From an uncultured candidate division Zixibacteria bacterium (GTDB lineage Bacteria > Zixibacteria > MSB-5A5 > GN15 > FEB-12): a DNA stretch of 64,000 nucleotides. The stretch is from NCBI GenBank assembly GCA_963806185.1, contig CAWDXE010000007.1:896001-960000 (forward strand). The letters are read 5' to 3'. Positions 40,857 through 63,752 of the stretch are shown piece after piece. The translations under genes were made by a program, and so were the position numbers. Under the pieces are notes generated by a model that worked only from the letters and a program-made list of their open reading frames with translations, was not told the origin of the DNA and ran no database searches. The number at the start of each line of letters is the position of its first letter. The stretch's first letter is position 1.

Positions 40857-40865
40857 CGCATCCTC

Positions 40866-43337: not shown

Positions 43338-43357
43338 GGCGTTCCCTTCAGGAATAG

Positions 43358-44701: not shown

Positions 44702-45714
44702 ACGACCGTCCTGTTGAGGGCCTTCGCCATGTTGCGAAGGTCAACGATCATATCGTCGTAGGCGTCGGGCGTGATGGACTGCAGGCCGTCAGAGAGGGCG
44801 GATTCCGGATCAGAGTGTACCTCGACCATAAGGCCGTGAGCGCCGACAGCCAGCGAAGCAAGTGACATGGGGAGCACTTTGTCTTTGCGGCCGGTGCCGT
44901 GGCTGGGGTCGGCAATGATCGGCAGGTGGCTCATCTTCTTAATGAAGGGAATGGCGGCCAGATCAAGCGTGTTACGGGTGTGATCGGCCAGGGTGCGAAT
45001 ACCGCGCTCGCAAAGGATGACCTGTTTGTTGCCTTCGACCATGATGTATTCGGCGGCCATCAGTAATTCTTCGAGTGTCGCACTCATGCCGCGTTTGAGC
45101 AGGACGGGTCGTTTCTGGCGTCCGGCACGGCGAAGCAGGGAATAATTCTGCATGTTGCGGGCACCGATTTGAATGATATCGGCGTAATCGGCAACCATGT
45201 CGATGGTTTCCGTATCAATCGCTTCGGTGACGATTTTGAGTCCGAATTTCTCCCGAACCTCGGCGAGAATTTTCAGCCCCTCCTCCCCCAGCCCCTGAAA
45301 AGTGTATGGCGACGTGCGCGGTTTGAAGGCGCCGCCCCGGAAGATTTTCGTACCGGCTCGGGCAACTCGCTCGGCAACCCGGAAGGTTTGCTCGCGTGAT
45401 TCCACCGAGCAGGGGCCGGCCATGATGATGAATTCCGAGCCACCGATTTTGACACCGTCGATATCGACGATGGTATCGTTTTGACTGAATTCCCGGTTGG
45501 CCAGTTTGTAGGGCTGGGTGACCTGAATGATGTTGCGGACGCCGGGCAGACCAAGAATGTGGTCAGCGTCAATCTGAGCCTTGTTACCGGTGATCCCGAT
45601 GGCGGTGCGCTGAGCGCCGGGCATGGGGTGAGCAGTGAGACCCATTCGTTCTATTTCGCGACAGACCCGGTCGACCATATCGACCGAGGCATTGGCTTCC
45701 ATGACAATGAGCAT
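44698..45714 (-). CDS. aroF: DAHP synthase type I-beta with N-terminal regulatory domain
   Basis: Motifs AGPCSVE, KPRTSPY, QIGARNMQN, LCERGIR and DPSH; AGGAG SD. Confidence 0.95.
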   Translation of the reverse strand: MLIVMEANASVDMVDRVCREIERMGLTAHPMPGAQRTAIGITGNKAQIDADHILGLPGVRNIIQVTQPYKLANREFSQNDTIVDIDGVKIGGSEFIIMAGPCSVESREQTFRVAERVARAGTKIFRGGAFKPRTSPYTFQGLGEEGLKILAEVREKFGLKIVTEAIDTETIDMVADYADIIQIGARNMQNYSLLRRAGRQKRPVLLKRGMSATLEELLMAAEYIMVEGNKQVILCERGIRTLADHTRNTLDLAAIPFIKKMSHLPIIADPSHGTGRKDKVLPMSLASLAVGAHGLMVEVHSDPESALSDGLQSITPDAYDDMIVDLRNMAKALNRTVV

Positions 45715-45789
45715 CGAAAACTCCTGACCAATCAGGCGGTTGAAAATTTCCTGGTCTTCCCGCCTGTCAGTTGTGTGACCGAGCAATCG

Positions 45790-47601
45790 CTACATCTCCT
45801 CCGGCGCCTGAAGTCCGAGCAGATATAGGCCTTCCTTCAGCACGATGCGAACGGACTCGACCAGCGCAATACGCGCGGCTGAGAGTTCAGCGTTATCGGA
45901 AATAATTTTGTCAATGCGACCCGCGGCATCCTTGCGCTGGTACACCTTGTTAAACGCGCCGGACAGTCGAATCAGATACGTGACCAGCGGGTACGGGTCG
46001 TATTGGGAGGCGGCGTCGTCGACAGCGGCCGGAAAATCGGCCAGCAGTTCGACGACGCGCTGTTCTTCCTCGAAATCGAGCAAAGCGTAATTGACATTCG
46101 CTTTGACCGGCTGCCCGTAATTGCGAATGAGCGCGCAAAGACGGGCATGAGTGTACTGCAGGTAGGGGCCGGTTTCGCCCTCGAAATTGAGGACATCGTC
46201 CCAGACGAAGTTGACGTCTTTCAGGCGACGCACGGAGAGTTGGGAATACGTGACCGCGCCGACGCCGACCATACGAGCGACGCTCGTCGATGTTGGCCAG
46301 CCCGGGGTTCTTCTCCTTGATGCGGGCCTTGACCAGCGAGATGGCCTCGCCGAGCAGATTATCAAGCAGAATGATATTGCCACGGCGGGTGGACATTGAC
46401 TTGTCGCCGAATTTCACCCAGCCGAATTCGATATGTTTCACACGACCGGTCATCCGCTTGTCCGGCGGCTGGTGTCTCGGCTTCTTCAAGCATGGCGATC
46501 ACTTTGAGACACTGGCGGAAGTGATCGGCTTGGGACGAACCCACGACGTAAAGTGATTCGTTGAAGTGATACTGTTTCCCAACGCCAGATGAGGCCGGCG
46601 AGATCGCGGGTCAGGTAGAGTGTGGCGCCATCGGCCCGCTTGAGCAATGCGGGCGGAAGGTTCGGATCTTTCAGATCAACAATGAGCGCACCGCGTGAGA
46701 CGGAGGTGAGGCCGACTTTTTCGAGCCGTTTGACGACTGCTTCCATCTTGTCGTTCAGGAAGGATTCGCCGTAGACGAGATCGAATTCAACGCCGAGCAT
46801 GGTGTAGACGCGGTCAAATTCTTCATGCGAGATGCGTTTGAGTTCCTCCCAGAGACGAGTGGCGTCGGGATCGCCATCCTCAAGATTCTTGAAGGCCGTG
46901 CGCGCCTGATCGTCAAGCGTAGGATCCTTCTCGGCCTCGACATGAAAGCGGACATAGAGGGCGAGCAGTTTCTGGACGGCGTTACCCTGCAGAGTGTCAG
47001 GCGTCCCCCATTTATTAAAGGCGACGATCATTTTGCCGAACTGAGTGCCCCAGTCGCCGGGGTAGTTGATGCCGACGACGGTGTAGCCGAGTTTGCGGAA
47101 AATACGTCGGAGCGAGTTGCCGATGACGGTCGTGCGGAGGTGTCCGACGCCGAACGGCTTGGCGATGTTGGGAGAAGAGTACTCCACCAGGTTTGTCTTC
47201 CCGGCGCCGACAGTGGAGTTACCGTAGCTGGATTGCTCGGTGAGAATTCGGGTGATGGTTTCGGCGGTCAGTTTGGTGGCGTTGACTTCCGCGTTGAGAA
47301 AGCCAGAGACGCCGCGACAAAGGATGGTCGAGTGGCCGGAGGCGCTCAGGAGCCGATTGGCTTCATCTGCGACTTTAATGGCAATGTCCATCGGCTTGTC
47401 GTTAAGTAACTTAACGAACTTGAAAACTGGAAAGGCAAAACGGCCCAAGCGGGGGTCTTTGGGCTTTTCGAGACCCTCATAGATACTGTCGGGCGTTAGC
47501 ATACCGCTCGCACCGTTAGCAAAAGCGTCGGGATATACAGCCCGAAACGCTGTGGCGAGGGCGTTGGCAAACTCAACTCTGTATTTATCTTTTGCTTCCA
47601 T
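45790..47601 (-). CDS. argS: Arginine--tRNA ligase, with three apparent +1 indels (about 46575, 46476 and 46282)
   Basis: Motifs EYSSPNIAKPFGVGHLR, GDWGTQFG, YLTRD, MSTRRGN, FEGETGPYLQYTHAR and LGLQAPEEM across successive frames. Confidence 0.95.
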
Positions 47602-47651
47602 AATGCTCTTGGAATGGGCAAATATCGGCCCATCTGTTCCACTTGGCAATG

Positions 47652-48460
47652 TCAATCTTCGCTCCCGGCCGGATGGTCAATGGCCCGACGGAGATCGGTT
47701 AGAAATGCACCAACACGCGTGAGATTCCCTTTGCCCGTCGCGTCTTTGGGGTCAATCTGGCGAACAATTGCCGAGCCTACGACGACACCGTCGGCGGACT
47801 GACATAGCCGGCGGGCACCGACGGCATCAGAGACGCCGAAACCAGCAACAAACGGCTTGGTCAGTTGCCGTTTAAGGCGAGCGAGATATTCGTCGGTCGA
47901 ATCGTCAAACTGTGCAGCTCGGCCGGTGACGCCGGTGACGGTGACGGCGTAAACAAAATCGGTGGAGTGTTTGTCGATCATCCGCATGCGAGCCGGCGTC
48001 GAGGTGGGCGATACGAGAAAGATCGAAGCCAGGCAACTGGTCGCGAGAAGCGAGCGAAGTTCGGCGGATTCGTCAACCGGAAGATCCGGGATGATGAACC
48101 CGTCGACACCGTGACGGGCGGCGTCCAGCACAAACCGTTCGAGGCCGTAGGCGAGGAGCGGGTTGAAGTAGCCCATCAAAACTATGGGGATATTGCTCCC
48201 GGTGCGCACGTGACTCGCTACTTCCAACGAGTGCCTCAGAGTTACACCGTTCTGCAAGGCGACGTGCGAGGACAACTGGATATCGGGACCGTCGGCCAAC
48301 GGGTCGGAGAAGGGCATGCCAAGTTCAAGCATATCCGCTCCGGAGGCGATGGCAATCTCGGCCAATCGCCTTGACTGATCGATGGTCGGGTAGCCGACGG
48401 TGAGAAACGGCACGAGCAGTTTCCGGTTGCCTCGAGATGAGAGGGTGTGCGCGATGCGGC

Positions 48461-48464
<4 letters not shown>
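47652..48464 (-). CDS. trpA: Tryptophan synthase alpha chain
   Basis: Motifs [30 protein letters not shown] and DGVVVGSA. Confidence 0.97.
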
Positions 48465-49649
<1,185 letters not shown>

Positions 49650-49660
<11 letters not shown>

Positions 49661-50273
49661 AGCGAATCCTGTCGCAAACTCGCATGAAGCGAGTGAGTTT
49701 GACTTTCGATTTGATTCCGGGTGCCGACTCGACGCTGGAGTTGACATCAACGATGAGCGGCCGGAAGAGGCGCACGCCTTCCTCGACATTCTGAGCATTG
49801 ATCCCACCGGCCAGCATCAAGTTGGGCGTGGCTTTGCGTGGGCGAGCGGGCCAATCAAATTGCCGGCCAGTGCCACCGAGTTCGCCTTCGGACTGGTTAT
49901 CGAACATGACAATGTCGGCCGCAGTCCGAGGAGTCCGCGTGGTATTACCATCGAACGCCTTGATCACTTTGAAGCCCGCGGCGCGGACGGCGCGAATATC
50001 GGACTCAGTTTGAGCGCCGTGGAGTTGAACGAAGTCCAGGTGCAGCAGTGAAGCACGTTTGATGATGCTGTTTGCAGTGTCGTGTACAAAGACACCAACA
50101 CGGTGGACCATCGGCGGCAACGGGTCGAGAATTGCCTTCGCCTGTTGCATCGTTACAACGCGTGGAGAGCCGGTGTAGAATATCACGCCAATGAGGTCGA
50201 CGCCGAGAGTGGCGGCGAGAACGGCGTCTTGTGGGCGGGTGACGCCGCAGATTTTGATGCGGAATCGGTTCAT
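49650..50273 (-). CDS. trpF: Phosphoribosylanthranilate isomerase
   Basis: Motifs IKICG, SPR, VQLHG, GGTG..FDW, LAGG and ESAPGIK. Confidence 0.96.
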
Positions 50274-51043
50274 GCGCCCCTCAGAAATTTCAAGTGCGCG
50301 ACTGGATCGGGGGCAGTCATGAGAGCCTCGCCGATGAGAAACGCGTCAAAGCCGGCGGACCGGAGCCGGGAAATGTCGGCTCGTGTGGTGATGCCGGATT
50401 CGGCAACTTTGAGTGTGTGTTTGGGAATCAGCGCCGCCAGCCGCTCGGCTGTGTCGAGCGAAACGGTGAAATCATCGAGATTGCGGCTGTTTACACCGAT
50501 AATTGCGCAGCCGGAGTTCACGGCGATCTCCAATTCCTTTTCATTGTGAACTTCCACCAAGCAATCAAGACCGATCTCACCCGCGGCAAGCAAGTAATCC
50601 GTCAGTTGTGCCGGTGTGAGCAGGCGCACAATCAGTAGAACGGCATCGGCCCGCATAAGGCGGGCATAATACACCTGGTATTCGTCGACGACGAAATCTT
50701 TGCAGAGCACGGGCAAGCCGGAGATATCAGCGACAAGCTGCAGGTATTCAGGGCGGCCCATGAAATGGCGTTGCTCAGTGAGAACGGAGATGGCTGCCGC
50801 ACCGCCATCATGGTAGTGCTTAGCGATTGCCGCGGGGTCGAATGTGTGTGCGAGAAGGCCCTTCGAAGGCGAAGCCTGTTTGATTTCGGCGATTATGCGG
50901 GTACCGTCACCGACCAGGGACTTTCGAAAGGAGTGGCTCGCAGGGGTCGGCAAATCATTTACGAAAGTGGTGAGCGGGCGAGTCCGCTTGAGGGCGTCGA
51001 CCTCTTCGCGACGGTGGTTGGCTATGGTTTCCAGAATGTTCAT
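50270..51043 (-). CDS. trpC: Indole-3-glycerol phosphate synthase
   Basis: Motifs IAEIKQASPSKG, SVLTE, KDF, LVEVH, GVN.RNL and AESGI. Confidence 0.96.
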   Translation of the reverse strand: MNILETIANHRREEVDALKRTRPLTTFVNDLPTPASHSFRKSLVGDGTRIIAEIKQASPSKGLLAHTFDPAAIAKHYHDGGAAAISVLTEQRHFMGRPEYLQLVADISGLPVLCKDFVVDEYQVYYARLMRADAVLLIVRLLTPAQLTDYLLAAGEIGLDCLVEVHNEKELEIAVNSGCAIIGVNSRNLDDFTVSLDTAERLAALIPKHTLKVAESGITTRADISRLRSAGFDAFLIGEALMTAPDPVAHLKFLRGA

Positions 51044-51044
51044 C

Positions 51045-52367
51045 TCAACCCTCACGCTCCGGAATGTACCAACCACTTCCCTTTTCCCGGCGCTGTTCGA
51101 TCGACCTGAAGAACGAGAAGTAGAGAAGTGAGGCGAGCAGGTATAGACCACTGGCGATATTCAGGGTGAGTGAGTAGCCGTACGTCTCAATCAAGTGGCC
51201 GCCGACAGCAACGGCGATCATCCAGGAGCCGGTCCAGGCGACAGTCAGGAGGGCGTTGACGAAGCCCTGTTCGGACTCGTCCGCGATTTCCATCGCAAGA
51301 TTGGTGGAGAGCGGCCCGGCGAGATTCATAAGGGCGCCGCGAAGGATGAAGGCGAAGACAACCAGTGGCAGGAAATAGCTGTACGCAAGGGTGAGCATGA
51401 ACGGAATCGATGCGACCTGCGTGTATACGACGGTTCGGACCAGGCCGAGTCGTTTCACCAGGAGCGGGCCGGCGAGTGTCCCGATCAGCATGGCCGCTGA
51501 CACGGAAAGGTATACCAGCCCGATGCGGTCGGGCGGAAGGTGAAAGCGGTCCCGGAAGAAGAGGCTGAGAAATGGTATGATCAGACCGGCGCCCAGGCCG
51601 ATCAGGAAATTGATGCTGGTCAATTTCAGATAGAAGCCGCCGCGATGGCGAAAAGTGGCGAGTCGGATTTTGAGCGGGCGGTCGTTAACTTCCGGACCGA
51701 AGGGTTTGATCATCGAAAACGGTATGAGCGCAAGGATACCGACAGCGATACCGAAGTAGAGGGCAATTTGATATCCGAGAATGCTGCTGCCAGTGGCCGA
51801 GGTGATGATCGTGACCAGCTTGCCCGATCCGGCTGATCCAAGCATCCCGGACAAGAGAAGGACGGCAAAGGAGCACGAGAACAGGTGAGTGCGTTCGACT
51901 GGCGTAGAGTTGCGAATGTAGAACGGTCCGCCGGCGACGCGGAAAAATGACCACGAGATACCGGCCAGCAGGGAGAAAGTCACGAGCATGCCCATTTTGG
52001 TGCTGGTAGTTATGAGAAAGCTGGCGACGGCGAACATTACGACAGCGGTGATCAGGAACGGCTTCAGCTTTAAGCGTGAAAAGAGTACGGCCGACGGGAC
52101 AGCCATCAGGGCAATGCCCAATGCGCGGAACGAATTGACAAAGCCAATGTCACCCTCGCCGAATCTCAGTTCCTTGAGGTAGAGATTGAGCAGGAACTGG
52201 TAGACTTCGAAGTTCACCCCCATGAGGAAGGCGCCGATGAGATACAATCGCGCATTCCGCGAAAAGAGGCTGAGGTGGGCCAGGTATTCACGAAGATGGC
52301 CCAGCGGGCCGGAGGGCGGTCGGGACTGGACCGGAATCCGGTCAATGTCGACGGGGAGTGCTATCAT
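51045..52367 (-). CDS. MFS transporter, embedded in the trp operon
   Basis: About 12 hydrophobic helices; motifs LLNLYL, ERTHLFS and LVKRLG; 1-3 nt spacing to trpD and trpC. Confidence 0.85.
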   Translation of the reverse strand: MIALPVDIDRIPVQSRPPSGPLGHLREYLAHLSLFSRNARLYLIGAFLMGVNFEVYQFLLNLYLKELRFGEGDIGFVNSFRALGIALMAVPSAVLFSRLKLKPFLITAVVMFAVASFLITTSTKMGMLVTFSLLAGISWSFFRVAGGPFYIRNSTPVERTHLFSCSFAVLLLSGMLGSAGSGKLVTIITSATGSSILGYQIALYFGIAVGILALIPFSMIKPFGPEVNDRPLKIRLATFRHRGGFYLKLTSINFLIGLGAGLIIPFLSLFFRDRFHLPPDRIGLVYLSVSAAMLIGTLAGPLLVKRLGLVRTVVYTQVASIPFMLTLAYSYFLPLVVFAFILRGALMNLAGPLSTNLAMEIADESEQGFVNALLTVAWTGSWMIAVAVGGHLIETYGYSLTLNIASGLYLLASLLYFSFFRSIEQRREKGSGWYIPEREG

Positions 52368-52370
52368 GGC

Positions 52371-53381
52371 CTACGCTGTGGTGAGTTGAATCCACGCCTG
52401 AAGTTTATGTTTGGCGGCTTCGCTGTCAATCGATTCCAGGGCGATTTTGACGCCATCGCGAATATCCCCTGCTTTTGCTCCGACATAGATCATCGCACCG
52501 GCATTGAAGGCGACGGCGTCGCGATAGGCCGATTTCCGGCCGTCGAGCACGTCGTTGAGAATGCGGGCGTTGGTCGGCGCATCGCCGCCCTCCAGGCTTC
52601 CCGCGGGATGGCGGGTGAGACCGACATCCTCAGGAGCAATGCGCCTGAGCGCCTGACCGTACGGCGAGACCTCGATGTATTCGGTCATGTCAGTGACGGA
52701 GAATTCGTCCAGACCGTCGGTCGAATGCACGACGAGAGCGTGTTTGCAGCCGAGCAGCCGGACGACATCAGCGAGAAGAACCATGAGTGAGCGGTCATAG
52801 ACGCCGATAACCTGACGCTGGACGCCGGCCGGATTGGTGAGCGGTCCGAGCACGTTGAACACGGTGCGAATACCCAGTTCCTTGCGCACCGGTGCGGCGT
52901 GGCGCATCGCCGGATGGAAGCGAGGGGCAAACATGAAGCCAAAGCCGAGTTTCGAAAGGGTTAGCTCTACCTTCATGGGGCCCGGATCGATGTTGCCACC
53001 GGTGCTTTCGAGCAGATCGGCGGAGCCGCACAGAGAGCTAACGGAGCGGTTGCCATGCTTGGCAACGTTGACGCCGGCGGCAGATGCGACAATCGAGGCG
53101 GCGGTCGAGATATTGAACGTGTGAGCGGAATCGCCGCCCGTCCCGCAGCCGTCGACAGCATGGTCCTCGAACATATGAATCCTGACCGCATGGCGTCGCA
53201 TGGAAAGGGCAAAGCCGGCGATCTCCTCGGCCTTCTCCCCTCTTTGTCGGAGAGCGACGAGCAGTCCGGCAATTTGCGCCGGGGTGGCCTGGCCGGTCAT
53301 GATCTGGTCCATGACAATAGCGGCCTCTTCGGTCGACAAAGTGGCGCCACTGAGCACCTGTTTGAGAGCATCTTGTATCAT
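52371..53381 (-). CDS. trpD: Anthranilate phosphoribosyltransferase
   Basis: Motifs CGTGGD, NIST, KHGNRSVSS..GSAD, RTVFN.LGP and DGLDE. Confidence 0.97.
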   Translation of the reverse strand: MIQDALKQVLSGATLSTEEAAIVMDQIMTGQATPAQIAGLLVALRQRGEKAEEIAGFALSMRRHAVRIHMFEDHAVDGCGTGGDSAHTFNISTAASIVASAAGVNVAKHGNRSVSSLCGSADLLESTGGNIDPGPMKVELTLSKLGFGFMFAPRFHPAMRHAAPVRKELGIRTVFNVLGPLTNPAGVQRQVIGVYDRSLMVLLADVVRLLGCKHALVVHSTDGLDEFSVTDMTEYIEVSPYGQALRRIAPEDVGLTRHPAGSLEGGDAPTNARILNDVLDGRKSAYRDAVAFNAGAMIYVGAKAGDIRDGVKIALESIDSEAAKHKLQAWIQLTTA

Positions 53382-53384
53382 AGA

Positions 53385-53951
53385 CTACAGGCTTCTCAGG
53401 AAATTTCGCAGGATCGTCTTGCCGTGGGTGGTCAGGATCGACTCGGGGTGAAACTGCACGCCGACAATCGGAAGCGCGCGGTGCTGCACGCCCATGATGA
53501 CACCGTCGGCCGTGCGCGCAGTCACTGCCAACTCGGCCGGAAGGGTCGCCGGGTCGATGACGAGGGAATGGTAGCGGGTGGCGGTAAACGGTGACGGAAC
53601 GTCACGATAAAGAAACGATTCATCGTGCAGAACTTCGGACGTCTTCCCGTGCATGAGAGTCGGTGCATAAGTGATCCGGGCGCCAAAGACCTGACCGATC
53701 GCCTGGTGCCCGAGACAGATGCCCAAGATGGGTATGCGACCAGCGGCTTTTTCGATCAGCACGGGCATGATGCCCGCGTTCTCGGGACGGCCGGGGCCGG
53801 GTGACAGTACGATGCCGGTCGGATGCTCGTCGAGCAGCGACGCGGCCGTGGCGGCGTCATTGCGGACTACTTTCAGTTCGGCGCCCAATTCGCCGAGGTA
53901 TTGCACGACGTTGTAGGTGAACGAGTCGTAGTTGTCCAGCAGGAGGATCAA
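53385..53951 (-). CDS. trpG: Anthranilate synthase component II (TTG start overlapping the trpE stop)
   Basis: Motifs DNYDSFTYN, SPGPG, GICLGHQ, RYHSL and QFHPES. Confidence 0.95.
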   Translation of the reverse strand: MILLLDNYDSFTYNVVQYLGELGAELKVVRNDAATAASLLDEHPTGIVLSPGPGRPENAGIMPVLIEKAAGRIPILGICLGHQAIGQVFGARITYAPTLMHGKTSEVLHDESFLYRDVPSPFTATRYHSLVIDPATLPAELAVTARTADGVIMGVQHRALPIVGVQFHPESILTTHGKTILRNFLRSL

Positions 53952-55408
53952 ATGTCGACCCCCCGGATAGCGGCAACAGCCGCTTTGGCTTTGTCGATGG
54001 TTTCCTGGTATTCCCGTGTGGGGTTGGAATCGGCAACGATACCGGCACCGGCCTGAACGAAATAGGACTGACTTTTCTTGACGATGGTGCGGATCGCAAT
54101 ACACGAGTCGAGATTGCCCCAGAAATCGAGGTAGGCGATGGAGCCGGCGTAAACACCGCGCCGGGTTGGTTCGAGTTCGTCGATAATTTCCATAGCCCGA
54201 ATCTTCGGGGCACCGGAAACAGTCCCCGCGGGGAAACAGGCAAAGTAGGCGTCGAGGGCACTGATGTCCTTCTTCAAGGTACCCTTGACCGAACTGACGA
54301 GGTGGATGACATGCGAGTATTTCTCAACCTTCATGTTGTCGTGCACACCCACGGAGCCGGGAACGCTGACGCGGCCGATGTCATTGCGGCCAAGGTCGAG
54401 CAGCATGGTATGTTCGGCGATTTCCTTTTCGTCGTTGCGAAGATCAACAATCAGGTGTTCGTCTTCCGCATCAGTTTTGCCGCGCGGCCGCGTTCCGGCG
54501 ATCGGGCGTCCTTCGATCGTGCCATCCTCGATACGAACGAGCATCTCGGGCGACGAGCCGATGACGGCATTGTCGCCAAAATTGAGCAGAAACATATACG
54601 GCGACGGGTTTAGTCGGCGCAGGTTTCGATACACTGACAGAGGGTCGCTTTTGGAGTTGAGACGCCATCTCTGCGACAGGACTACTTGAAGGATGTCGCC
54701 TTCTTTGATATGGTGTTCAGCGCGGCGGACCATGGTCTCGAAGTCGGGGCGGGTTTGCTCGGCGATCATGCGCACCTTTTGCTTTTTGGGTGGCGGCTTC
54801 GGGATACGGAGGGGACGCTGCAGAGCGGAGATGGTCTCTTTCAGGAGACGCTGAGCGCGGGTAATTTTGGCCGCCAGGCCCTTTTGACCTGAGTCGTGAA
54901 GCACGTTGACAATAACGATAATCTCCTGGCGGAGGTGGTCAAAGACGACAATTCGGCTATACAGGCCAAACTGGCATTCGGGCAAGCCGATGGGATCGGG
55001 GCGGGTATCGGGGACTCGTTCAATCCATCGGATCGCATCATAGGAAAAATAGCCGACACCGCCGCCGGTAAATCGAGGCAGACCCTCAATCCGCACGGGC
55101 TGATACACCGAGAAGAGTTCCTTGAGAAATTCGAGCGGGCTGGCGGCGATATGTCGTTCCTTTTTCCCCTGGCGGACGATGACTTGTTTCCAGCGTCCCT
55201 CGATAACGAGAAAGGGATCGACGCCGATGAAGGAGTAGCGGGCCAACTTCTCCCCTCCTTCGACGGATTCAAGCAAGAACGAGTAGGGTCGACCGGACGC
55301 CAGTTTGATATAGGCACCCACCGGGGTTTCGAGATCAGATGGAATACGCGCGAAGACGGGGATCACGTTCCCTTGTTTCGCCAGAGCAGCAATGGCTTTT
55401 GCGGTCAT
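53948..55408 (-). CDS. trpE: Anthranilate synthase component I
   Basis: Motifs LLES, NPSPYM, SSPE, PIAGT, EH.ML.DLGRND, FPAGTVSGAPK and QAGAGIVADS; ATGA overlap with the dapF-like gene. Confidence 0.96.
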   Translation of the reverse strand: MTAKAIAALAKQGNVIPVFARIPSDLETPVGAYIKLASGRPYSFLLESVEGGEKLARYSFIGVDPFLVIEGRWKQVIVRQGKKERHIAASPLEFLKELFSVYQPVRIEGLPRFTGGGVGYFSYDAIRWIERVPDTRPDPIGLPECQFGLYSRIVVFDHLRQEIIVIVNVLHDSGQKGLAAKITRAQRLLKETISALQRPLRIPKPPPKKQKVRMIAEQTRPDFETMVRRAEHHIKEGDILQVVLSQRWRLNSKSDPLSVYRNLRRLNPSPYMFLLNFGDNAVIGSSPEMLVRIEDGTIEGRPIAGTRPRGKTDAEDEHLIVDLRNDEKEIAEHTMLLDLGRNDIGRVSVPGSVGVHDNMKVEKYSHVIHLVSSVKGTLKKDISALDAYFACFPAGTVSGAPKIRAMEIIDELEPTRRGVYAGSIAYLDFWGNLDSCIAIRTIVKKSQSYFVQAGAGIVADSNPTREYQETIDKAKAAVAAIRGVDI

Positions 55409-56253
55409 CGGGTCCACAGGAATTCTCCTTCGCCGATGAATTCGGCCGGTCCGGTGAGTTCGATGATATTCGTTTTGGCGTTCCAGTGCACATGAAGCGA
55501 TCCGGGTCGAAAGACAACTTCGCAGCGGCGATCGACCAGTCCGAGCATGACACCGGCGGCGACGGCGGCCGCCGCTCCCGTACCGGATGAGCCGGTGGGG
55601 CCTGCGCCCCGCTCCCATTCGGCAACTTCCATTTTCTTGCGGCTGACAACACGGACGAATTCGACGTTGGTGGCATTCGGAAACACGGGCGCCTTTTCGA
55701 TTCTGGCTCCCAGTTCCTGCCAGGCAAATTTGAAGGTGTCTACGAGGATGATGGCGTGAGGATTGCCGACGGAGAGGCAAGTCATGCGATGGCGCCGGCC
55801 ATCGACGACGACGGGCGAATTGATGATGGTATAGAGCCGGGACTTCACCGGGATGCGTTTGGCGACGAAATCCGGGGCGCCGATTTCAGCCGTAAACTGG
55901 GGCAATTTTCGTCGTTCTGAAGGGCGAACGGCGTTGATGGTGCCGGCGACCTCGAAGCTGACGGGAGCGGGGCGTTTGGAGAGCCGGGCGAGATGAAGGG
56001 CGGCAATGCGGAGGCCGTTGCCCGACTTTTCGGCCCAGGAGCCGTCGGCGTTGAAAATATCCATTTTCCGGTCGGCTTTTCGGCTTTTCGAGAGGACGAG
56101 GATTCCGTCAGCGCCAATACCCCGGTTGGGGTGACAGATGGCGACGGCAAGTTTTGACCACTGTGCCCGACTGAGGCGCAGACGATCGGCCGGGATCACG
56201 AGAAACGTGTTTTCCAAGCCATGGTATTTAGCAAAAGATATGTTCATAGTCAT
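55405..56253 (-). CDS. dapF: Diaminopimelate epimerase-like protein with Ser at both catalytic Cys positions
   Basis: Motifs GIGADG, FNADGS, EKSGNG (canonical EMCGNG), GNPH, NVEF and ERGAG.TGSSGTG (canonical TLACGTG). Confidence 0.8.
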   Translation of the reverse strand: MTMNISFAKYHGLENTFLVIPADRLRLSRAQWSKLAVAICHPNRGIGADGILVLSKSRKADRKMDIFNADGSWAEKSGNGLRIAALHLARLSKRPAPVSFEVAGTINAVRPSERRKLPQFTAEIGAPDFVAKRIPVKSRLYTIINSPVVVDGRRHRMTCLSVGNPHAIILVDTFKFAWQELGARIEKAPVFPNATNVEFVRVVSRKKMEVAEWERGAGPTGSSGTGAAAAVAAGVMLGLVDRRCEVVFRPGSLHVHWNAKTNIIELTGPAEFIGEGEFLWTR

Positions 56254-56283
56254 TGAATGTTCAATCTTGCCGCTTGCAGGGCA

Positions 56284-56311
56284 ATAAAAAAACCCGCCGA
56301 AGAGGCGGGTT
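56284..56311 (-). terminator. Attenuator terminator upstream of dapF-trpE
   Basis: AACCCGCC-TCTTC-GGCGGGTT followed by TTTTTAT on the minus strand. Confidence 0.9.
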
Positions 56312-56343
56312 GAATGTACGATTTGCTCTGCAATGAGGGCAAT

Positions 56344-56475
56344 TTACCGATCGCGCCGCCTCCGAACCGGGACAAAGCTATACCGACGCCACTGCCACAT
56401 CGCCCAAACAACGGCAACATTAAGCAGAAGTGCCGCAACGGCTCCGATCTCTATGGTAATATACGCGTTCATCAT
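56344..56475 (-). CDS. trpL: Trp attenuation leader peptide (43 aa, or 42 aa from the ATG at 56472); absent from the ORF track
   Basis: Translates as MMNAYITIEIGAVAALLLNVAVVWAMWQWRRYSFVPVRRRRDR*. Three TGG codons, GAGGT SD, and the stop lies 32 nt before the terminator stem. Confidence 0.8.
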   Translation of the reverse strand: MMNAYITIEIGAVAALLLNVAVVWAMWQWRRYSFVPVRRRRDR

Positions 56476-56489
56476 TGACCTCAGATATC

Positions 56490-56517
56490 AATATATGTCA
56501 TTTCACGTATTTAGCAA
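56490..56517 (-). promoter_or_regulatory. Putative promoter of the trp leader
   Basis: TTGCTA-N16-TATATT overlapping the end of the upstream aminotransferase gene. Confidence 0.55.
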
Positions 56518-57715
56518 ACAAATTCGCGAGTCGGGCGACGCCTTCATCGATTTGCGCCGGCAGAGCGTTGGAGAAATTGAGCCGGAGCGTGTTTTCACCG
56601 CCGCCGTTGGCAAAAAACGGGGCACCGGGAACGTAGGCCACTTTCAGGTCGACCGCCTGCTGGAAGAGCGCCTGCGCCGAACAATGTTCGGGAAGGGTCA
56701 GCCAGAGGAACAGTCCGCCTTCCGGGCGGGTCCAGGTGATCCCCTTGGGGAAGCGATCCTCAAGAAGTTTCAGCATGAGATTTCGCTTCATGAGGTAATC
56801 GTCACGAATTCGCTGGACGTGCGGTTCAAAGCGGCCGGACTTCATGTACTCAAAGATCATGTACTGGTTGAAGGTGCTGCTGTGCAGATCGGTGAATTGT
56901 TTCACTTTTTCAAGAATGGCCATAAGCTTGCCGGGGCCGACAATCCATCCGACCCGAAGTCCGGGAGTGACGGTTTTGGAGAAGGTTCGGAGAGCGATGA
57001 CTCCGTCTCCGCCCAGACTTTTGAGGCTGGGCAGAGGAGTACCGGCGAATCGGATATAGGCATACGGGTTGTCATCGACGATCGGGACGTGATAGCGCGC
57101 AGCCACAGCGACCAATGCTTTGCGGCGTTCGAGCGACATGGTAATTCCAGTGGGATTCTGGAAATCGGAGATTACGTAGATGAACTTGGGACGATATTGG
57201 CGAAGCCGATCTTCCACCTGATCGACGATCATCCCGTCCTCGTCCATATCCACTGTACAATAGCGGGCCTGGTAGTAGCCGAAGACCTGGAGGGCACCGA
57301 CGTAGGTGGGGTTTTCGGTCAGAATGTAATCGCCGGGATTCAGAAAGGTCCGAGCAAGCATCTCGATACCCTGCTGGGCGCCGGTGGTAATCATGATATT
57401 GTCAGCGGTGGCGTGCCCGCCCTCGGAGGTCTCTCGCTGGGCCAGCAGCTCGCGCAGAGGCGTGATGCCTCGCGTGAGCGTGTACTGCAGAGCGGGGGCA
57501 CCGTAGGAATCGAGCACCTGCGAGCACACAGCTTTGAGATCTTCGAGGGGAAAGAGTTCCGGGGCAGGGAGACCGCCGGCAAACGAAATAACGCCCGGCT
57601 GAGAGGCGAATTTAAGGATTTCGCGAATGACGGAGGGCTTCAAGTCGACCACGCCCTGGGTGATCGCCCAACCGTCGATACTCGCGTTTTGTTGAGTCGA
57701 ATCTACGGGATTCAT
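56498..57715 (-). CDS. PLP-dependent aminotransferase (LysN/2-aminoadipate or aromatic transaminase-like)
   Basis: Motifs SVIREILK, ISFAGGLP, TGAQQG, FQNPTG, DNPY, TFSKT.TPGLRVGW and PEGGLF; no HTH. Confidence 0.9.
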   Translation of the reverse strand: MNPVDSTQQNASIDGWAITQGVVDLKPSVIREILKFASQPGVISFAGGLPAPELFPLEDLKAVCSQVLDSYGAPALQYTLTRGITPLRELLAQRETSEGGHATADNIMITTGAQQGIEMLARTFLNPGDYILTENPTYVGALQVFGYYQARYCTVDMDEDGMIVDQVEDRLRQYRPKFIYVISDFQNPTGITMSLERRKALVAVAARYHVPIVDDNPYAYIRFAGTPLPSLKSLGGDGVIALRTFSKTVTPGLRVGWIVGPGKLMAILEKVKQFTDLHSSTFNQYMIFEYMKSGRFEPHVQRIRDDYLMKRNLMLKLLEDRFPKGITWTRPEGGLFLWLTLPEHCSAQALFQQAVDLKVAYVPGAPFFANGGGENTLRLNFSNALPAQIDEGVARLANLFAKYVK

Positions 57716-57881
57716 AATTCTCAATGGTTCCTGTCTGCTTCACAATTGTCTAATATGGTGGAGATCATACGCGGGCAATATAGCCACTTTGACGGTGAGA
57801 GCAACCGCTTCCGGAGAGTGCTATTTCGAGTGGCAGTTTAGTCTTGCCAGCCTTGGGTTGTGTTGCCTACCTTTGAGGTTT

Positions 57882-59315
57882 ATGCAGCAAGATATTATAG
57901 GAAATTACCGGGTAGTTCAGAAGATTGGCGCCGGCGGTATGGCCAAAGTGTACCTGGCCGTGCATGTTGATATTCCCAATCTGAAGGTGATTCTCAAAAT
58001 ACTCGAAGATCCGCAGTTGGTGGATCGTTTTCGCCAGGAAGCGGACAAGCTGGCGTTGCTCGACGGCAACTCGAAGATCTGTCAGATCAAGCACTTCTTC
58101 GCCCATGGTGACGAATTTGTCATCGCGATGGAATATATCGACGGGGTTTCGCTGGATCAGACGGTGAAGGAGCTGGGGCGGCTGCCGTTGGGCGAGGCGG
58201 TACGGATCATGTGCGAAGTGCTGGATGTGCTTGATTTCGCCCACAGCAAGGAGATTTATCATCGCGATATCAAACCGTCGAATATCATGATCGACAAGCG
58301 CGGGATGGTAAAGGTGATCGATTTCGGGATTGCCAAGGGGAAATCCGATCCCGATTTGACGATTGCCGGCACGGCCTGCGGTACACCGTCGTATATGGCG
58401 CCGGAGCAATTTACGCCGACGCCGAGCACGAATTACGGTGTAATTGACATCTACGCGGCGGGAACGACACTCTTCAACCTGGTGACCGGTGATCTGCCAT
58501 TTAAGGCCGACAACGAGTTCCTGCTGCGCGACGCGAAGCTGTTTAATGAGCCGGTATCGCCGCGGTCGCTGAATCCGGAAATACCCAAGGCGCTGGAGGA
58601 AGTCATCCTCAAGTCGCTGAAGCGTACGCCGACGGAACGGTATATGACGGCAGCTGCCATGAAGAAGGCGCTGGAGGCAGTGCCTCTCCCTCGCGATTCC
58701 GGATCGCATCACGAGAAGACGGTGGCAATTGGCACGTCGACGGAAAAAAAGACGGACTCCAGATCACGGGCGGGGATGTTCGTTGGAATTGCGGCCGCAA
58801 TCGTGATTGTGGGAGTGGGAGCCTACTGGATGCTGGGTGGGAAAAGTGAACCCGCAGGAAATGTCCCAAGTTCAATTCCATCCGGAGATAGCTTACACAC
58901 CGCACAAGCGACCGATACCCAGAAGCAGGTGACGGAGCCGGCACAAGTTGCGCAGGACCAACCTCGCACGGCGACCACCGCTGAGCAGAATTCGAATAGA
59001 CAGACTGTCGAAAACTCACGGCCCCAAACCACGACGACAGGTGAGTCACCCAAGCCGGTGACGGTCGAGCCGGTCAAACAGCAACCGGTGGGATCGGCCG
59101 AAGTGCGTATCGGATCCGGCAGTTACCCGGGAGCGCGAATCTATATTAATGGGAAGCTTCAGGACGAAGTCACGCCGTATGCGTTCAAGCTGACGCCGGG
59201 TGAATATCGGATAGAAGTAAAGACGGAAATCGACGGGCAGGCGGCAAGTCGTGATACGACGCTGACAATAGCGGCGGGAGACGCAGTGAGAGTGAATCTG
59301 AAATTCGATCAATAA
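57882..59315 (+). CDS. Hanks-type Ser/Thr protein kinase with one TM, a Thr/Gln/Pro linker and a PEGA-like C-terminal domain
   Basis: Motifs IGAGGMAKVY, ILK, E (alphaC), HRDIKPSN, DFG and GTPSYMAPE; TM GIAAAIVIVGVGAYW; C-terminal PGARIYING..TP...LTPGEYRIEV. Confidence 0.92.
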   Translation: MQQDIIGNYRVVQKIGAGGMAKVYLAVHVDIPNLKVILKILEDPQLVDRFRQEADKLALLDGNSKICQIKHFFAHGDEFVIAMEYIDGVSLDQTVKELGRLPLGEAVRIMCEVLDVLDFAHSKEIYHRDIKPSNIMIDKRGMVKVIDFGIAKGKSDPDLTIAGTACGTPSYMAPEQFTPTPSTNYGVIDIYAAGTTLFNLVTGDLPFKADNEFLLRDAKLFNEPVSPRSLNPEIPKALEEVILKSLKRTPTERYMTAAAMKKALEAVPLPRDSGSHHEKTVAIGTSTEKKTDSRSRAGMFVGIAAAIVIVGVGAYWMLGGKSEPAGNVPSSIPSGDSLHTAQATDTQKQVTEPAQVAQDQPRTATTAEQNSNRQTVENSRPQTTTTGESPKPVTVEPVKQQPVGSAEVRIGSGSYPGARIYINGKLQDEVTPYAFKLTPGEYRIEVKTEIDGQAASRDTTLTIAAGDAVRVNLKFDQ

Positions 59316-59404
59316 GAGTTGCGCGAGCAGAATTGTGGTTTCTATATTGATGCTGTCCCGACAATTTTTTGAAAAACAATGCATATCAATATGAGGGTAC
59401 CAGT

Positions 59405-60454
59405 ATGGTGAGCACTTCGCACATGGCAAGGCGAGCAGGTCTTGCGGTCGGCATCGCGGTCCTCTGCGTGACCGCGGCATTTGCGCAGGTCCAGAAGAGC
59501 AGCACGGTTCCGGAACAGTTGGCCGAGGCCGTCCGGCTGTACAGTGACCTGGAGTTTGAAAAGGCGTTGGGAGTAGCTAATGACGTGTTGGCTCGCCCGG
59601 GATTGACGACGCAGGACAGCGTGGCCATTCTGGAGGTGTTGAGCATCGTCAACTACGCCAAGGGGGCGGAATTCCAGCGCAAAGCGTTCAGCTATCTGGA
59701 GCAGATTTCGAAAATCGGCCCCTGTGTCCTGCAATTGCCTCGCGACATCTGGCCTCAGGAGCTGCGGACCAAGTGGTTCAGATTGACCAACGCGAAGGAC
59801 TCGCTGTTGTGTCATGTAAATTCGGAACCGGGGCAGAAGACGGTGGCAATCCTGCCCTTTGACAATTACTCGGTGGGAAAGTACCAGCAGGAGCTAGGCA
59901 TGTTGAGCCGGGCGCTCTCTGAATTCATGGTGCTCGACTTCATGAAACTGGGCAATATGAAAGTGGTTGAGCGCGATAAGATCGAATTCATTCTGAAGGA
60001 ACTGGAACTGCAGAAGTCGGGGGCGGTTGACCAGTCCACGGCATCCAAGGTCGGCAAGATCGTCGGGGCGCAGTACATGGTTTTCGGCAGTATTACGCAG
60101 CTCGACGACAAGACGGCGGCGATGATGGCCCGGGTGGTCAAGGTTGAGACGTCGGAAATTGTCGCCTCGGCGGATATCCAGGGTAAGCCGGAATATCTGA
60201 AGATGCAGAAGGATCTGGTGGCGGACCTGGCGAAGAAACTGGATGAGACGCTGGGCAGCAATGTTCGTCAACTCATTCAGGAAGCCTCGACCGAGACGAT
60301 GGACGCGGCGAAGTACTACTCGCAAGGTCTGGAATTTGTCGATCAGTACGAATACAAGAAGGCGTATGACGCCTTCAAGAAAGCGTACGATATGGACAAG
60401 ACGTTTGCTGAAGCGAAGAAGAAAATGGATGTCTACCGACCGTTGGCCGGTTAA
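59405..60454 (+). CDS. Exported protein with a CsgG/FlgO-like domain and TPR-like helices
   Basis: Signal peptide ending AFA; VAILPFDN..KVVERDKIEFILKEL..VDQSTASKVGKIVGAQYMVFGS..ARVVKVETSEI. Confidence 0.75.
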   Translation: MVSTSHMARRAGLAVGIAVLCVTAAFAQVQKSSTVPEQLAEAVRLYSDLEFEKALGVANDVLARPGLTTQDSVAILEVLSIVNYAKGAEFQRKAFSYLEQISKIGPCVLQLPRDIWPQELRTKWFRLTNAKDSLLCHVNSEPGQKTVAILPFDNYSVGKYQQELGMLSRALSEFMVLDFMKLGNMKVVERDKIEFILKELELQKSGAVDQSTASKVGKIVGAQYMVFGSITQLDDKTAAMMARVVKVETSEIVASADIQGKPEYLKMQKDLVADLAKKLDETLGSNVRQLIQEASTETMDAAKYYSQGLEFVDQYEYKKAYDAFKKAYDMDKTFAEAKKKMDVYRPLAG

Positions 60455-60475
60455 GCGCAAAGGAAAGCGGAATTC

Positions 60476-61777
60476 ATGAATCGCCACATACCTCATATCG
60501 CGATTGGCCTTCTCATCTGCGCCCTCGGCGGCTCGCCAAGAGCGCAATCGCCGACGATTGATCCGGTCGCGCTGGACAAGGCCATTGCGAACAGCTACAA
60601 GATGATTGACGCGCACCCGAAGGATCAGAAGCCGTGGCAGGATCTCGGCCTAGCCATGTATCAGAAGGGTGATTTGTCGGGAGCCGAGGAATCGTTGAAG
60701 CGAGCGTTGCAGCTCAAGCCGGATGACCCCAAGACACATCTCTACATGGGCATGGTGCTGGAGAAGCAAAACCAGTCGGACAACGCGCTGAAGGCGTATG
60801 CAGCCGGTCTCCGGAGCAACCCAAAAGGCAAGACCGGTTCAGCGATACGGGCACGCCTGTCGTTTTTGAGCGAACAACGGCTCAAGGCGCAGGCGAGCGA
60901 CGTCGTTCAGAAGGAGAAATCAATTAACGTAGAGTCGTTTCCAGAGAAATCAATCGCCGTTGTGAATTTCGACGGCTCGACTCTCCCCCCTGACCTGGCG
61001 CCGCTCAGCCTGGGGCTGGCGGAAATGACTTCGAATGACCTCAGCAAGGTGCATGAATTGACGGTGATAGAACGATCGAAGCTCGATTTCATCATGCAGG
61101 AACTGAAGCTGTCGGAAAATGGCATGGTCGATCAGGCAACGGCTCCGAGAATGGGCAAGCTGCTTGGCTCGAAGCAGGTCGTGACCGGATCGCTGGTGGG
61201 AGCCGGTCCTGAGCGAATCCACCTGGACGGCGGCATCGTATCGACTGGTGACGGCGAATTCACGCCGACCGGGGCCAATGAAGGCGAGCTCAAATCGTTT
61301 TTCAAGGTACAGAAGGAATTCGTGTTTGGCGTGCTGGATAAGGCCGGCGTGAAGCCGACGCCGGAGGAGCGCACCGAAATTGAAAAGGTTCCTACTGAAT
61401 CGTATGTTGCATTCCTGGCATACAGCCGGGGTCTGGATTTCCAGCGTCGCGGCATGCCGAATGAGGCGCTGGGTGCGTTTCAGAGCGCCGTTAAGGCGGA
61501 CGGATCTTTCAAGGAAGCAGCATCACAGTCAGACATGCTGGGTGCTCGACTGGCGCCGGGAAATGCGTACGCATCGGACTTCGGTTCCTTTGAGGAGCAG
61601 ATACTGGATGATGCATCGTCGACGGGCAAACTAGGCGATGTGGATTATCGCCTCTTTGAGATCGTCATAGATAACGGGATGATTCCACACAATACTCCGG
61701 TTCCACCGATCAAGCCGCCGTTTGTGGCGGGTAAGACGACGGTCATTGTTCACGGGGGCGCACATGGAGACAAATAA
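60476..61777 (+). CDS. Exported TPR + CsgG/FlgO-like protein (paralogue of the upstream gene)
   Basis: Signal peptide; TPRs (LGLAMYQKGD..A...LKRALQLKP); IAVVNFD..VIERSKLDFIMQEL..VDQATAPRMGKLLGSKQVVTGS. Confidence 0.75.
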   Translation: MNRHIPHIAIGLLICALGGSPRAQSPTIDPVALDKAIANSYKMIDAHPKDQKPWQDLGLAMYQKGDLSGAEESLKRALQLKPDDPKTHLYMGMVLEKQNQSDNALKAYAAGLRSNPKGKTGSAIRARLSFLSEQRLKAQASDVVQKEKSINVESFPEKSIAVVNFDGSTLPPDLAPLSLGLAEMTSNDLSKVHELTVIERSKLDFIMQELKLSENGMVDQATAPRMGKLLGSKQVVTGSLVGAGPERIHLDGGIVSTGDGEFTPTGANEGELKSFFKVQKEFVFGVLDKAGVKPTPEERTEIEKVPTESYVAFLAYSRGLDFQRRGMPNEALGAFQSAVKADGSFKEAASQSDMLGARLAPGNAYASDFGSFEEQILDDASSTGKLGDVDYRLFEIVIDNGMIPHNTPVPPIKPPFVAGKTTVIVHGGAHGDK

Positions 61778-61778
61778 G

Positions 61779-62885
61779 ATGCGTACCCTTTTGGCGGCGG
61801 CAGTCCTGGTGCTCGGAACGGTCGTAAGCTCACAAGCACAAATAGTCTATGGGCAGCCCGCCTCGGGATCTTTGTCGTTTACCTATACGCATTGGTCGCT
61901 GGAGAGCGGCGACGCCAAGACGACGATCGGACAGGTTTCGTTGCCAGTGAGTGGGTTTCTTCCGCTCGGCGAAAATATGGACGCGCAATTCTATTTGGGC
62001 GGGACGTCCAACTCACTCAAAACCGACGTCAACGACTATTCGATGTCGGGGCTGGAGGATCTGCGACTGCAGATCAATCGCTCTCTGTCCAATGACCATC
62101 TTCTGTTGAGTCTGGGCGCGAGTCTTCCGACGGGTAAGAAGGAATTGAATCTTACCGAGGAGTGGCGGCTGGTGCAGGCGCTGTCGCAGGATTTTCTCAA
62201 CTTTCCCGTTCGTCGGCTGGGCGAAGGTCTGGGGCTGAATTTCCTGGTGGGCGGTGTGACCATGCTCGGGCAGATAAGAGCGGGTGCAGGGATTGGATAT
62301 TCCCTGCTGGGAAGTTACACGCCGTATGAAGGGGGGGACGACTACAATCCGGGCGACATACTAACGGCAAATCTCGGCTTTGACACCAAACGGGAGAACA
62401 CTCGCTGGGCTCTGCAGATGCTTCACACGTACTATGCCACCGACAAGTTCAAGGAGCTTAAGTCGTTTCGGCAGGGGCCGGTGACGCAATTCATTTTGTC
62501 GGGCGAGCGGATGTCGGACCGTTTCTCGGTAGGCGGCCAAGCGTCATATATTCTACGCGGACGGAATCAGCGGTACGCCTATCCGGCGGAGACGCTGGTT
62601 GATCAATTGAAGCTGTTCGGCAACGAGTTTTCGCTCGGGGCGAACTGCGGGTTCACCACCGGTCCGCAATGGACGATTGCGCCGTTTGCGTCGGCGCGGT
62701 TCATTCAGGCCAATGAGGAGACGCTCGACAATTCGCATATATATGGAATCGGTTCGGGGATTGTCCGAGCAATCGGTCAGGGGAATATTGAAGCACGCTT
62801 TGGATGGTACACCGGGCAGGCAGACGGCGGCACGATTGATCTGTCCGGAATTCAAGTGTCCTGCGGTGCACGCGTAACGTTTTAG
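61779..62885 (+). CDS. Outer-membrane beta-barrel protein of unknown function
   Basis: Signal peptide (SQA/Q), amphipathic strands, SLPTG motif and C-terminal Phe (GARVTF). Confidence 0.7.
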   Translation: MRTLLAAAVLVLGTVVSSQAQIVYGQPASGSLSFTYTHWSLESGDAKTTIGQVSLPVSGFLPLGENMDAQFYLGGTSNSLKTDVNDYSMSGLEDLRLQINRSLSNDHLLLSLGASLPTGKKELNLTEEWRLVQALSQDFLNFPVRRLGEGLGLNFLVGGVTMLGQIRAGAGIGYSLLGSYTPYEGGDDYNPGDILTANLGFDTKRENTRWALQMLHTYYATDKFKELKSFRQGPVTQFILSGERMSDRFSVGGQASYILRGRNQRYAYPAETLVDQLKLFGNEFSLGANCGFTTGPQWTIAPFASARFIQANEETLDNSHIYGIGSGIVRAIGQGNIEARFGWYTGQADGGTIDLSGIQVSCGARVTF

Positions 62886-62894
62886 GGGAATGAC

Positions 62895-63752
62895 ATGGTA
62901 AAATACAATGTTCTCTATATCGCGGTGACAGTGGTACTGGCGGGACTGGCGATGTTCGGTTGTTCGGAGCGGATTGTCGACCAGGGGAGTTCTCTCAACA
63001 GTGCTGTGGTGCGAATTGACGCACCGGCGGCGCTGTCGACCGGGATTGCACCGTACGCTCATATCAGGATCAGCGGCCCGGACATGCCGTCGATGCTTGT
63101 GCCGTTGTCGCTCGACAGTGTGACCAATCGGTGGAGCGGCGAGCTCTCGGTGCCGTCAGGCATCGATCGCGAGTTCGTGCTTGAGGCAATTGACACGATG
63201 TACGGCGAAGGATCGTTTCCGGACAGCGAAATTGTACTTTATCGGGCGTCCGACACGGCCGACCTGATCGCCAATCAAACGGTCACGATTGATTTCACCC
63301 TCTTCCCTACTGTGCCATTGCTGACAACTACGCCGTCCGAGGTAAGATGCGCTATCGGAGATACCTTCTCGGTGATCCTGGCGCTGTATCACGGTCCGCA
63401 CAACTTGTACGGGATGGCTTGCCAGGTCTATTACCCGACGACATTTGTTATTGCCGATAGTGTGCAATTTTTCTCGGCGGCGGCCGATAGCATCATCGAG
63501 TTCGCGTCCGTAGACAGGGCGAACCCATATGTCTCAATTTCGGTTACGGAAACGAATACGACACAAACGCTCTGGCCCGGAACCAGCTATGCGAAGGTGG
63601 CGAAGATATTCTTCCGCACTACCGTGGGTAATGCAGGCAGCGGGTTGATCTGGGTGTCGAGTACTTCGATGCAGGACGCCAACCAGCAGTCGATCTATCC
63701 GAGTAATTTTTATACGGGATACACCAACGTGTTCACCACGGCCGCGCAGTAA
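62895..63752 (+). CDS. Lipoprotein with beta-sandwich (Ig/cohesin-like) domains
   Basis: Lipobox AMFGC; beta-rich sequence; GDTFSV and G.S.AKVAKIFFR patterns resemble cohesin-like domains. Confidence 0.6.
   Translation: MVKYNVLYIAVTVVLAGLAMFGCSERIVDQGSSLNSAVVRIDAPAALSTGIAPYAHIRISGPDMPSMLVPLSLDSVTNRWSGELSVPSGIDREFVLEAIDTMYGEGSFPDSEIVLYRASDTADLIANQTVTIDFTLFPTVPLLTTTPSEVRCAIGDTFSVILALYHGPHNLYGMACQVYYPTTFVIADSVQFFSAAADSIIEFASVDRANPYVSISVTETNTTQTLWPGTSYAKVAKIFFRTTVGNAGSGLIWVSSTSMQDANQQSIYPSNFYTGYTNVFTTAAQ

Follow-up and report, generated by a model that had tools for sequence, protein, structure and literature searches.

The stretch of DNA analyzed here (the window, 64,000 nucleotides of a Zixibacteria genome) carries what is very probably a classical ribosome-coupled Trp attenuator, predicted to tune transcription of a dapF-trpEGD-MFS-trpCFBA block. 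The sequence and its comparison with relatives establish the parts of the element, how they are spaced and that they go with trp genes; in relatives, they also show covarying alternative helices. The features are as follows.

57777–57804, minus strand: candidate promoter of aat (PWM score 13.9, second best in 40500–57900)
56498–57724, minus strand: aat, a PLP class I/II aminotransferase gene (PF00155), upstream of the leader
56490–56517, minus strand: P1, putative leader promoter, −35 and −10 with a 16-nt spacer; overlaps the aat stop codon
56478–56482, minus strand: Shine–Dalgarno-like GAGGT, read from the sequence
56344–56475, minus strand: trpL-like leader ORF, 42–43 aa, start at 56475 or 56472; previously unannotated
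56389–56406, minus strand: regulatory codon block W-A-M-W-Q-W, with Trp codons at 56406, 56397 and 56391
56356–56363, minus strand: segment 2, the antiterminator 5′ arm, within the last ORF codons; a ribosome at the stop would cover it
56301–56308, minus strand: segment 3, common to antiterminator and terminator
56286–56311, minus strand: intrinsic terminator; 8-bp stem at 56311–56291, about −14 kcal/mol, and a 7-U tract at 56292–56286
56256–56284, minus strand: P2, a second promoter-like site directly behind the U tract, 8 nt ahead of the dapF ATG at 56247; a candidate
55405–56247, minus strand: dapF-like gene for a putative epimerase (TIGR00652), next after the attenuator; Ser takes the place of both catalytic Cys residues
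47652–55408, minus strand: trpE-trpG-trpD-MFS-trpC-trpF-trpB-trpA (NCBIfam), abutting or overlapping ORFs; the block likely regulated

An earlier note, made from the letters of the window, had proposed the −35/−10 pair with its 16-nt spacer, the GAGGT ahead of a 42–43-codon ORF, the three Trp codons, and a terminator with a T run; all are found at the positions listed. GAGGT lies 5 nt from the ATG at 56472 and 2 nt from the ATG at 56475, so the 42-codon form of the leader is likelier. The leader peptide consists of a hydrophobic stretch, then the Trp block, and it has a basic C-terminus. Its Trp codons are spaced, not consecutive. The 80 nt from the last of them to the terminator is a long distance for the family, whose median is 62 and range 39–90. 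The intrinsic terminator lies between the leader ORF and the dapF-like gene, and the helix of segments 2 and 3 is 8 bp long, taking in three bases of the terminator loop.

We propose that the element would work as follows. Transcription would start at P1, with some read-through from aat possible. When charged tRNA-Trp is plentiful, the ribosome would reach the stop codon at 56346 and cover segment 2 (56363–56356), and the terminator would form. When Trp is short, the ribosome would wait at 56406–56391, and segment 2 would capture segment 3 before the 3′ arm of the terminator is made; RNA polymerase would then read on into dapF-trp. The weaker P2, behind the U tract, would give basal dapF and trp expression outside the switch.

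The switch was analyzed by folding with the ribosome footprint hidden codon by codon, at mask offsets of 10–15 nt. The quantity scored was capture of the terminator 5′ arm before the 3′ arm exists, and the E. coli K-12 trpL locus was the control. The equilibrium probability of the terminator proved uninformative as a switch test, staying at 0.95 or above even for E. coli trpL; hence, the pre-terminator transcript was used instead. At offset 13, capture in the window's leader is 0.87 with the ribosome on the Trp codons versus 0.17 with the ribosome at the stop, the latter value being 0.17–0.29 across offsets 10–15. For E. coli trpL, the values are 0.71 and 0.00. That is, in silico, a ribosome at the Trp codons frees segment 2 and a ribosome at the stop covers it. 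The earlier note had suggested folding with and without ribosome masks as a check, and the outcome resembles the E. coli control. With the Trp codons masked, the minimum-energy pre-terminator fold is the antiterminator pairing 56363–56356 with 56308–56301, including both inner helices that the note had predicted, GCGAT/ATCGT and TTGC/GCAA. Against 200 dinucleotide shuffles of its own sequence, this antiterminator is marginal (capture, p = 0.075; energy, p = 0.46).

Most of the 56 leaders analyzed, this one included, behave alike. They were defined by ORF and terminator, the antiterminator helix not being used. Capture drops by at least 0.3 between Trp codons and stop in 51/56, and 31/56 beat their shuffles at p ≤ 0.05 (40 shuffles each). 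Capture of at least 0.8 is reached by 48/56 leaders versus 10/68 leaderless terminators at the same site. An upstream helix of at least 8 bp is present in 37/55 leaders, one leader with a short flank being left out, versus 4/68 leaderless terminators.

One part of the proposed architecture is not supported. The 1:2 hairpin of the earlier note, GCCGTT..GGGCGA with TTGTCC..GGCGGC, comes to −17.5 kcal/mol, 6.9 worse than the −24.4 kcal/mol that these nucleotides reach when folded freely. When no ribosome is present, another protector fold and the antiterminator are nearly equal in energy (−36.7 and −36.0 kcal/mol), and when folding starts from the likely transcript start, the antiterminator is ahead by 2.3. 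The description of a complete 1:2/2:3/3:4 system was thus overstated: antiterminator and terminator stand, the specific 1:2 hairpin is unsupported. Without a ribosome, capture is at least 0.6 in 51/56 leaders, compared with 0.18 in E. coli; these leaders therefore seem to need a ribosome placed over segment 2 close to the stop codon. With the full hairpin at equilibrium and Trp-codon masks, the terminator wins in 8/9 settings by 1.2–2.6 kcal/mol. It is likewise favored in E. coli trpL (by 4.7). It follows that the switch must be kinetic.

The tie to trp genes was examined in a phylum set of 285 genomes. The 160 loci examined, one duplicate being dropped, are the best-scoring trpE loci returned plus 60 hand-picked regions, i.e., a subset of all loci, and some genomes give two. 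A single Trp-cluster ORF criterion was used throughout; 10 loci were too short for it. Such an ORF lies upstream in 37/84 dapF-trpE loci (of these, L050 is probably a chance match and L095 is weak) and in 27/27 operons beginning with trpE. It is found in 0/34 dapF loci with a non-trp gene next and in 0/4 dapF-trpG loci. In the trpE-first leaders, the terminator was called automatically in 25/27 and by eye in the other two. The ORF criterion alone is loose, matching 376/2009 upstream windows in this genome; ORF plus terminator matches 3/2009, this locus included. A metagenome set of 80 loci, 7 of them too short and some possibly duplicating genomes already counted, gave leaders in 6/24 loci before trpE (one of the six, L209, is no genuine leader) versus 0/35 before non-trp genes. 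The counts were 0/7 before trpG or trpD and 1/7 with an unknown neighbor.

The control dapF loci have short intergenic regions, lowering the chance of a match, and kin are not independent; matched pairs therefore weigh more. In one genus (g58), the leader is present in 7/7 dapF-trpE loci. An eighth genome of the genus has no leader before its dapF-argS but has one before its separate trpE. The leaders keep their Trp codons in frame, and the peptide around these codons diverges freely in sequence. The earlier note had asked for conserved Trp codons upstream of trpE in related genomes; they are there, and they go with trp genes. The leader is nonetheless dispensable, as 47/84 dapF-trpE loci are without it.

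Several arrangements among these loci are of separate interest. At L111, L112, L125 and L131, as well as at six metagenome loci, dapF is directly followed by trpG, trpE being missing at the site; at least two of the dapF-trpG genomes have trpE as a separate locus behind a leader of its own. At L085 (G169:C6), two complete Trp/Tyr leader-plus-terminator units stand in tandem about 380–20 nt upstream of trpE. At L015, L021, L024, L038, L039, L045, L061, L146, L150 and L153, the leader begins right at the stop codon of aat or overlaps it, and several of these leaders are without a strong promoter of their own. This suggests translational coupling to the upstream gene.

Covariation was assessed in an aligned subfamily that excludes this locus, namely 22 of the 25 aligned-type leaders of separate trpE operons, two near-copies and one truncated leader being left out. 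The alignment of dapF-type leaders is too gappy around segment 2, and no pair count was taken from it. In the 22 sequences, the antiterminator is 93.6% paired and has 16 compensatory cells, a number matched by 0/500 shuffles; it is the best of 7 registers. The pair-level count is not significant (132/500 shuffles). The terminator of the same subfamily is 96.3% paired. The earlier note had named an uncompetitive antiterminator as grounds for giving up the reading. The antiterminator is competitive, depends on ribosome position and covaries in relatives. With the conserved, trp-linked leaders, this upholds the predicted Trp attenuator of the dapF-trp block.

FastTree, run on 117 TrpE rows, places this locus in one group with six loci that bear a leader (support 84). 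The leader label changes 10 times on the tree versus 38.9 times for shuffled labels. Among dapF-trpE loci, the leader is present in 22/23 outside this locus's own family versus 15/61 inside it, counting L050. By the simplest reading, the leader is probably ancestral and was lost several times. On this reading, the switch can be lost repeatedly by deletion of the leader alone. TrpE proteins of separate trpE operons form their own clade, scattered over many families. A chimeric origin of the window's leader from a leader of the separate-trpE type is not supported: among 56 comparisons, the best peptide match (z = 3.4) and the best DNA match (z = 3.4) point to different loci, and TrpE groups with dapF-type leaders.

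The locus has no close kin. The nearest DapF homolog is about 60% identical, and for that reason selection on this copy is not demonstrable from kin. A genome scan for close relatives gave three distant loci, a metagenome scan gave at most 58% identity, and a protein search gave none. Among the 120 DapF homologs listed, 10 are named as Zixibacteria, one as candidate division GN15 and one as Calditrichaeota. NCBI places Zixiibacteriota in the FCB group, and the earlier note's guess of an FCB lineage is in keeping with these names.

The attenuator sits within an aat-dapF-trp cluster. The order aat-dapF-trpE is found in 28/30 loci. A terminator scan found none between aat and the leader, and a transcript from the candidate aat promoter could also run into the leader. 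Downstream of the trp block, in the same orientation, are argS and then aroF, aroA, aroE, aroK and aroB. The argS gene (45790–47655, minus strand) is broken into two frames near 46383–46489, one for the catalytic domain and one for the DALR domain, by either an assembly error or a frameshift. Divergent from all this, at 57789–63752 on the plus strand, are a Ser/Thr kinase gene and, after it, several genes for predicted exported proteins. The DapF-like protein has Ser in place of both residues of the catalytic Cys pair. Ser/Ser is found at that pair in 196/199 motif-matching dapF loci, some of which duplicate a genome, and this gene is the sole PF01678 gene found in this genome. PMC12039745 describes a Cys-to-Ser change in the DapF fold as hindering catalysis.

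The promoter matrix was derived from 80 regions upstream of dapF that lack a leader; a further 26 dapF loci, in which no start could be placed, did not enter it. P1 scores 15.1, the best in the operon region, and its −10 hexamer recurs, at the same 16-nt spacing, ahead of many homologous leaders. P2 scores 8.1; the 99th percentile of the background is 6.9, and leaderless loci have a median of 11.3. Its position is conserved in dapF loci with or without a leader. Such a promoter-like site lies just behind the terminator U tract, mostly 5–8 nt from the dapF start codon, in loci with and without trp genes downstream. This suggests that dapF transcripts are leaderless, starting from that site. P2 would probably give basal dapF-trp expression that partly bypasses the switch, and a regulated P1 would add to this basal P2. 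Start codons are also found 5–9 nt behind a −10 at L023, L027, L080, L081, L091, L092, L101–L103 and L161, besides the dapF starts in most loci. Leaderless mRNAs, leaderless leader peptides included, may thus be common in the phylum.

The leader peptide stands out for its hydrophobic stretch. By Kyte–Doolittle hydropathy values, no other of the 56 leader peptides is as hydrophobic, and none is as long; its most hydrophobic 19-residue window (mean 2.1), the highest among them, is transmembrane-like. The 17 codons before the first Trp are more hydrophobic than nucleotide shuffles (p = 0.001, in a test chosen after the fact). Of the 25 long leaders, 5 reach p ≤ 0.05 in such a comparison, and 7 others of the 25 long Zixibacteria leaders have a mean hydropathy above 0.8 before the Trp block; these have divergent sequences, and most belong to one part of the tree. 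In the nearest leader-bearing TrpE relatives, the Trp leader at this site is short and hydrophilic; hence, the hydrophobic stretch is not needed for attenuation. An RNA hairpin covering the Trp codons is not supported as the source of the hydrophobicity, as the folding z is 0.0 and the 25 leaders give no correlation. A donor of the hydrophobic segment was sought in this genome and in the fetched loci, with nothing better than E = 0.057 for DNA and 0.12 for protein.

Could the ORF instead be a stand-alone gene, or relic of a gene, for a small membrane protein, with its own promoter and a constitutive terminator, dapF-trp being expressed from P2 only? The hydrophobic stretch, with basic residues after it, would suit such a protein. 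Trp is common at membrane interfaces. Relatives without any leader have the same terminator and P2. This explanation is nevertheless very unlikely. The position, the Trp block and the terminator geometry match those of 55 other leaders, the antiterminator pairs into the terminator loop, and the closest TrpE relatives have their short leaders at this very place. P2 is also weaker here than in leaderless loci. The peptide has no Pfam or NCBIfam match, and in the ESM atlas its best match is 0.86, a lead only, with none at 0.9 or above. A gentler version has the leader doing both: sensing Trp and serving as a single-pass membrane peptide, or as a nascent segment that couples membrane targeting to the stall. 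We consider this dual function quite unlikely. If it were true, attenuation of the trp block would also depend on membrane insertion. A real function of the hydrophobic peptide would be the sole surprising part for a specialist, who would expect the mechanism itself.

What the attenuator senses is a further matter. It is unlikely that it answers to aromatic amino acids more broadly (Tyr, Phe, perhaps with Arg) and not to Trp alone. A Tyr codon (56382) and a Phe codon (56376) come after the Trp codons, and segment 2 stays free when the ribosome is at these positions (capture 0.87). Across the family, Tyr ranks second among the residues around the Trp block; at least two Tyr are present in 17/25 separate-trpE leaders and in 9/31 dapF-type leaders. 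The downstream aro genes, in the same orientation, would fit as well. However, this leader has one Tyr and one Phe only, a promoter-like site ahead of argS (47649–47621) suggests that the aro genes are transcribed separately, and Arg beside Trp may reflect G-rich composition. The Tyr-rich Trp blocks of separate-trpE leaders (L076–L103, L155–L163) are possibly dual Tyr/Trp sensors. Alternative helices alone do not identify a sensor, so that a TRAP-like RNA-binding protein, a T-box or a repressor could in principle exert control, the ORF being incidental. This is scarcely credible here. The 82% complete genome has no match to TRAP (PF02081) or TrpR (PF01371), with positive controls; no T-box is among the weak Rfam matches; and an incidental ORF would not be expected to keep its Trp codons in frame while the peptide around them changes. 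A crude scan of 152 short-ORF/terminator pairs in this genome made no other amino-acid attenuator evident.

The earlier note knew of no such attenuation in a lineage it placed, with probability, in the FCB group. For the group as a whole, this does not hold. PMC2864571 describes Bacteroid-trp (RF01692, "Bacteroidete tryptophan peptide leader RNA") as a Trp leader RNA in Bacteroidetes, and the likeness, as far as that description goes, is a Trp leader-peptide element in an FCB-group phylum. The phylum and the operon context are different. RF01692 (gathering score 49 bits) has no match in this genome, a Bacteroides control being positive, or in 15 leader loci, and none of these 15 loci matches any Rfam family at gathering score. 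For Zixibacteria, no report was found: the literature searched on tryptophan or attenuation gave no relevant title, the subscription attenuation surveys cited in PMC4833913 being outside its scope. Classical Trp attenuation is thus predicted to extend to a phylum for which the literature searched has no report. The roughly 60 unannotated leaders, uncaught by any Rfam model in the 15 loci tested, are enough to seed a new family.

In Sinorhizobium meliloti, trpL (rnTrpL/peTrpL) is described as a Trp attenuator ahead of trpE (PMC6614838), and second functions are claimed there for the leader RNA and peptide (PMC6614838, PMC7298713). The likeness to the window's leader, on that description, is the Trp attenuator architecture ahead of trpE.

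The closest comparison is with E. coli trpL (RF00513), the mechanism being taken as given in PMC6614838. The best Rfam match of the window's element is this very family, Trp_leader, over 56370–56284 (25 bits, E = 0.029, below the gathering score of 41). In both, trp genes are preceded by a leader ORF with Trp codons and by an antiterminator and an intrinsic terminator that exclude each other, and the two behave alike in mask folding. The differences are as follows. The leader peptide has 42–43 residues here and 14 in E. coli, and the Trp codons are spaced here and tandem there. Segment 2 lies within the ORF, unlike in E. coli. No clear 1:2 protector is seen here, capture without a ribosome being 0.86 versus 0.18, and, unlike in E. 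coli, a leader without translation would not be expected to settle firmly on termination. In addition, no TrpR was found here, an aat-dapF-trp cluster encloses the element, and a second promoter-like site follows the terminator. The locus shows how an attenuator of this type can be placed within a larger operon, the next gene having a role other than Trp synthesis and a second promoter probably serving as backup.
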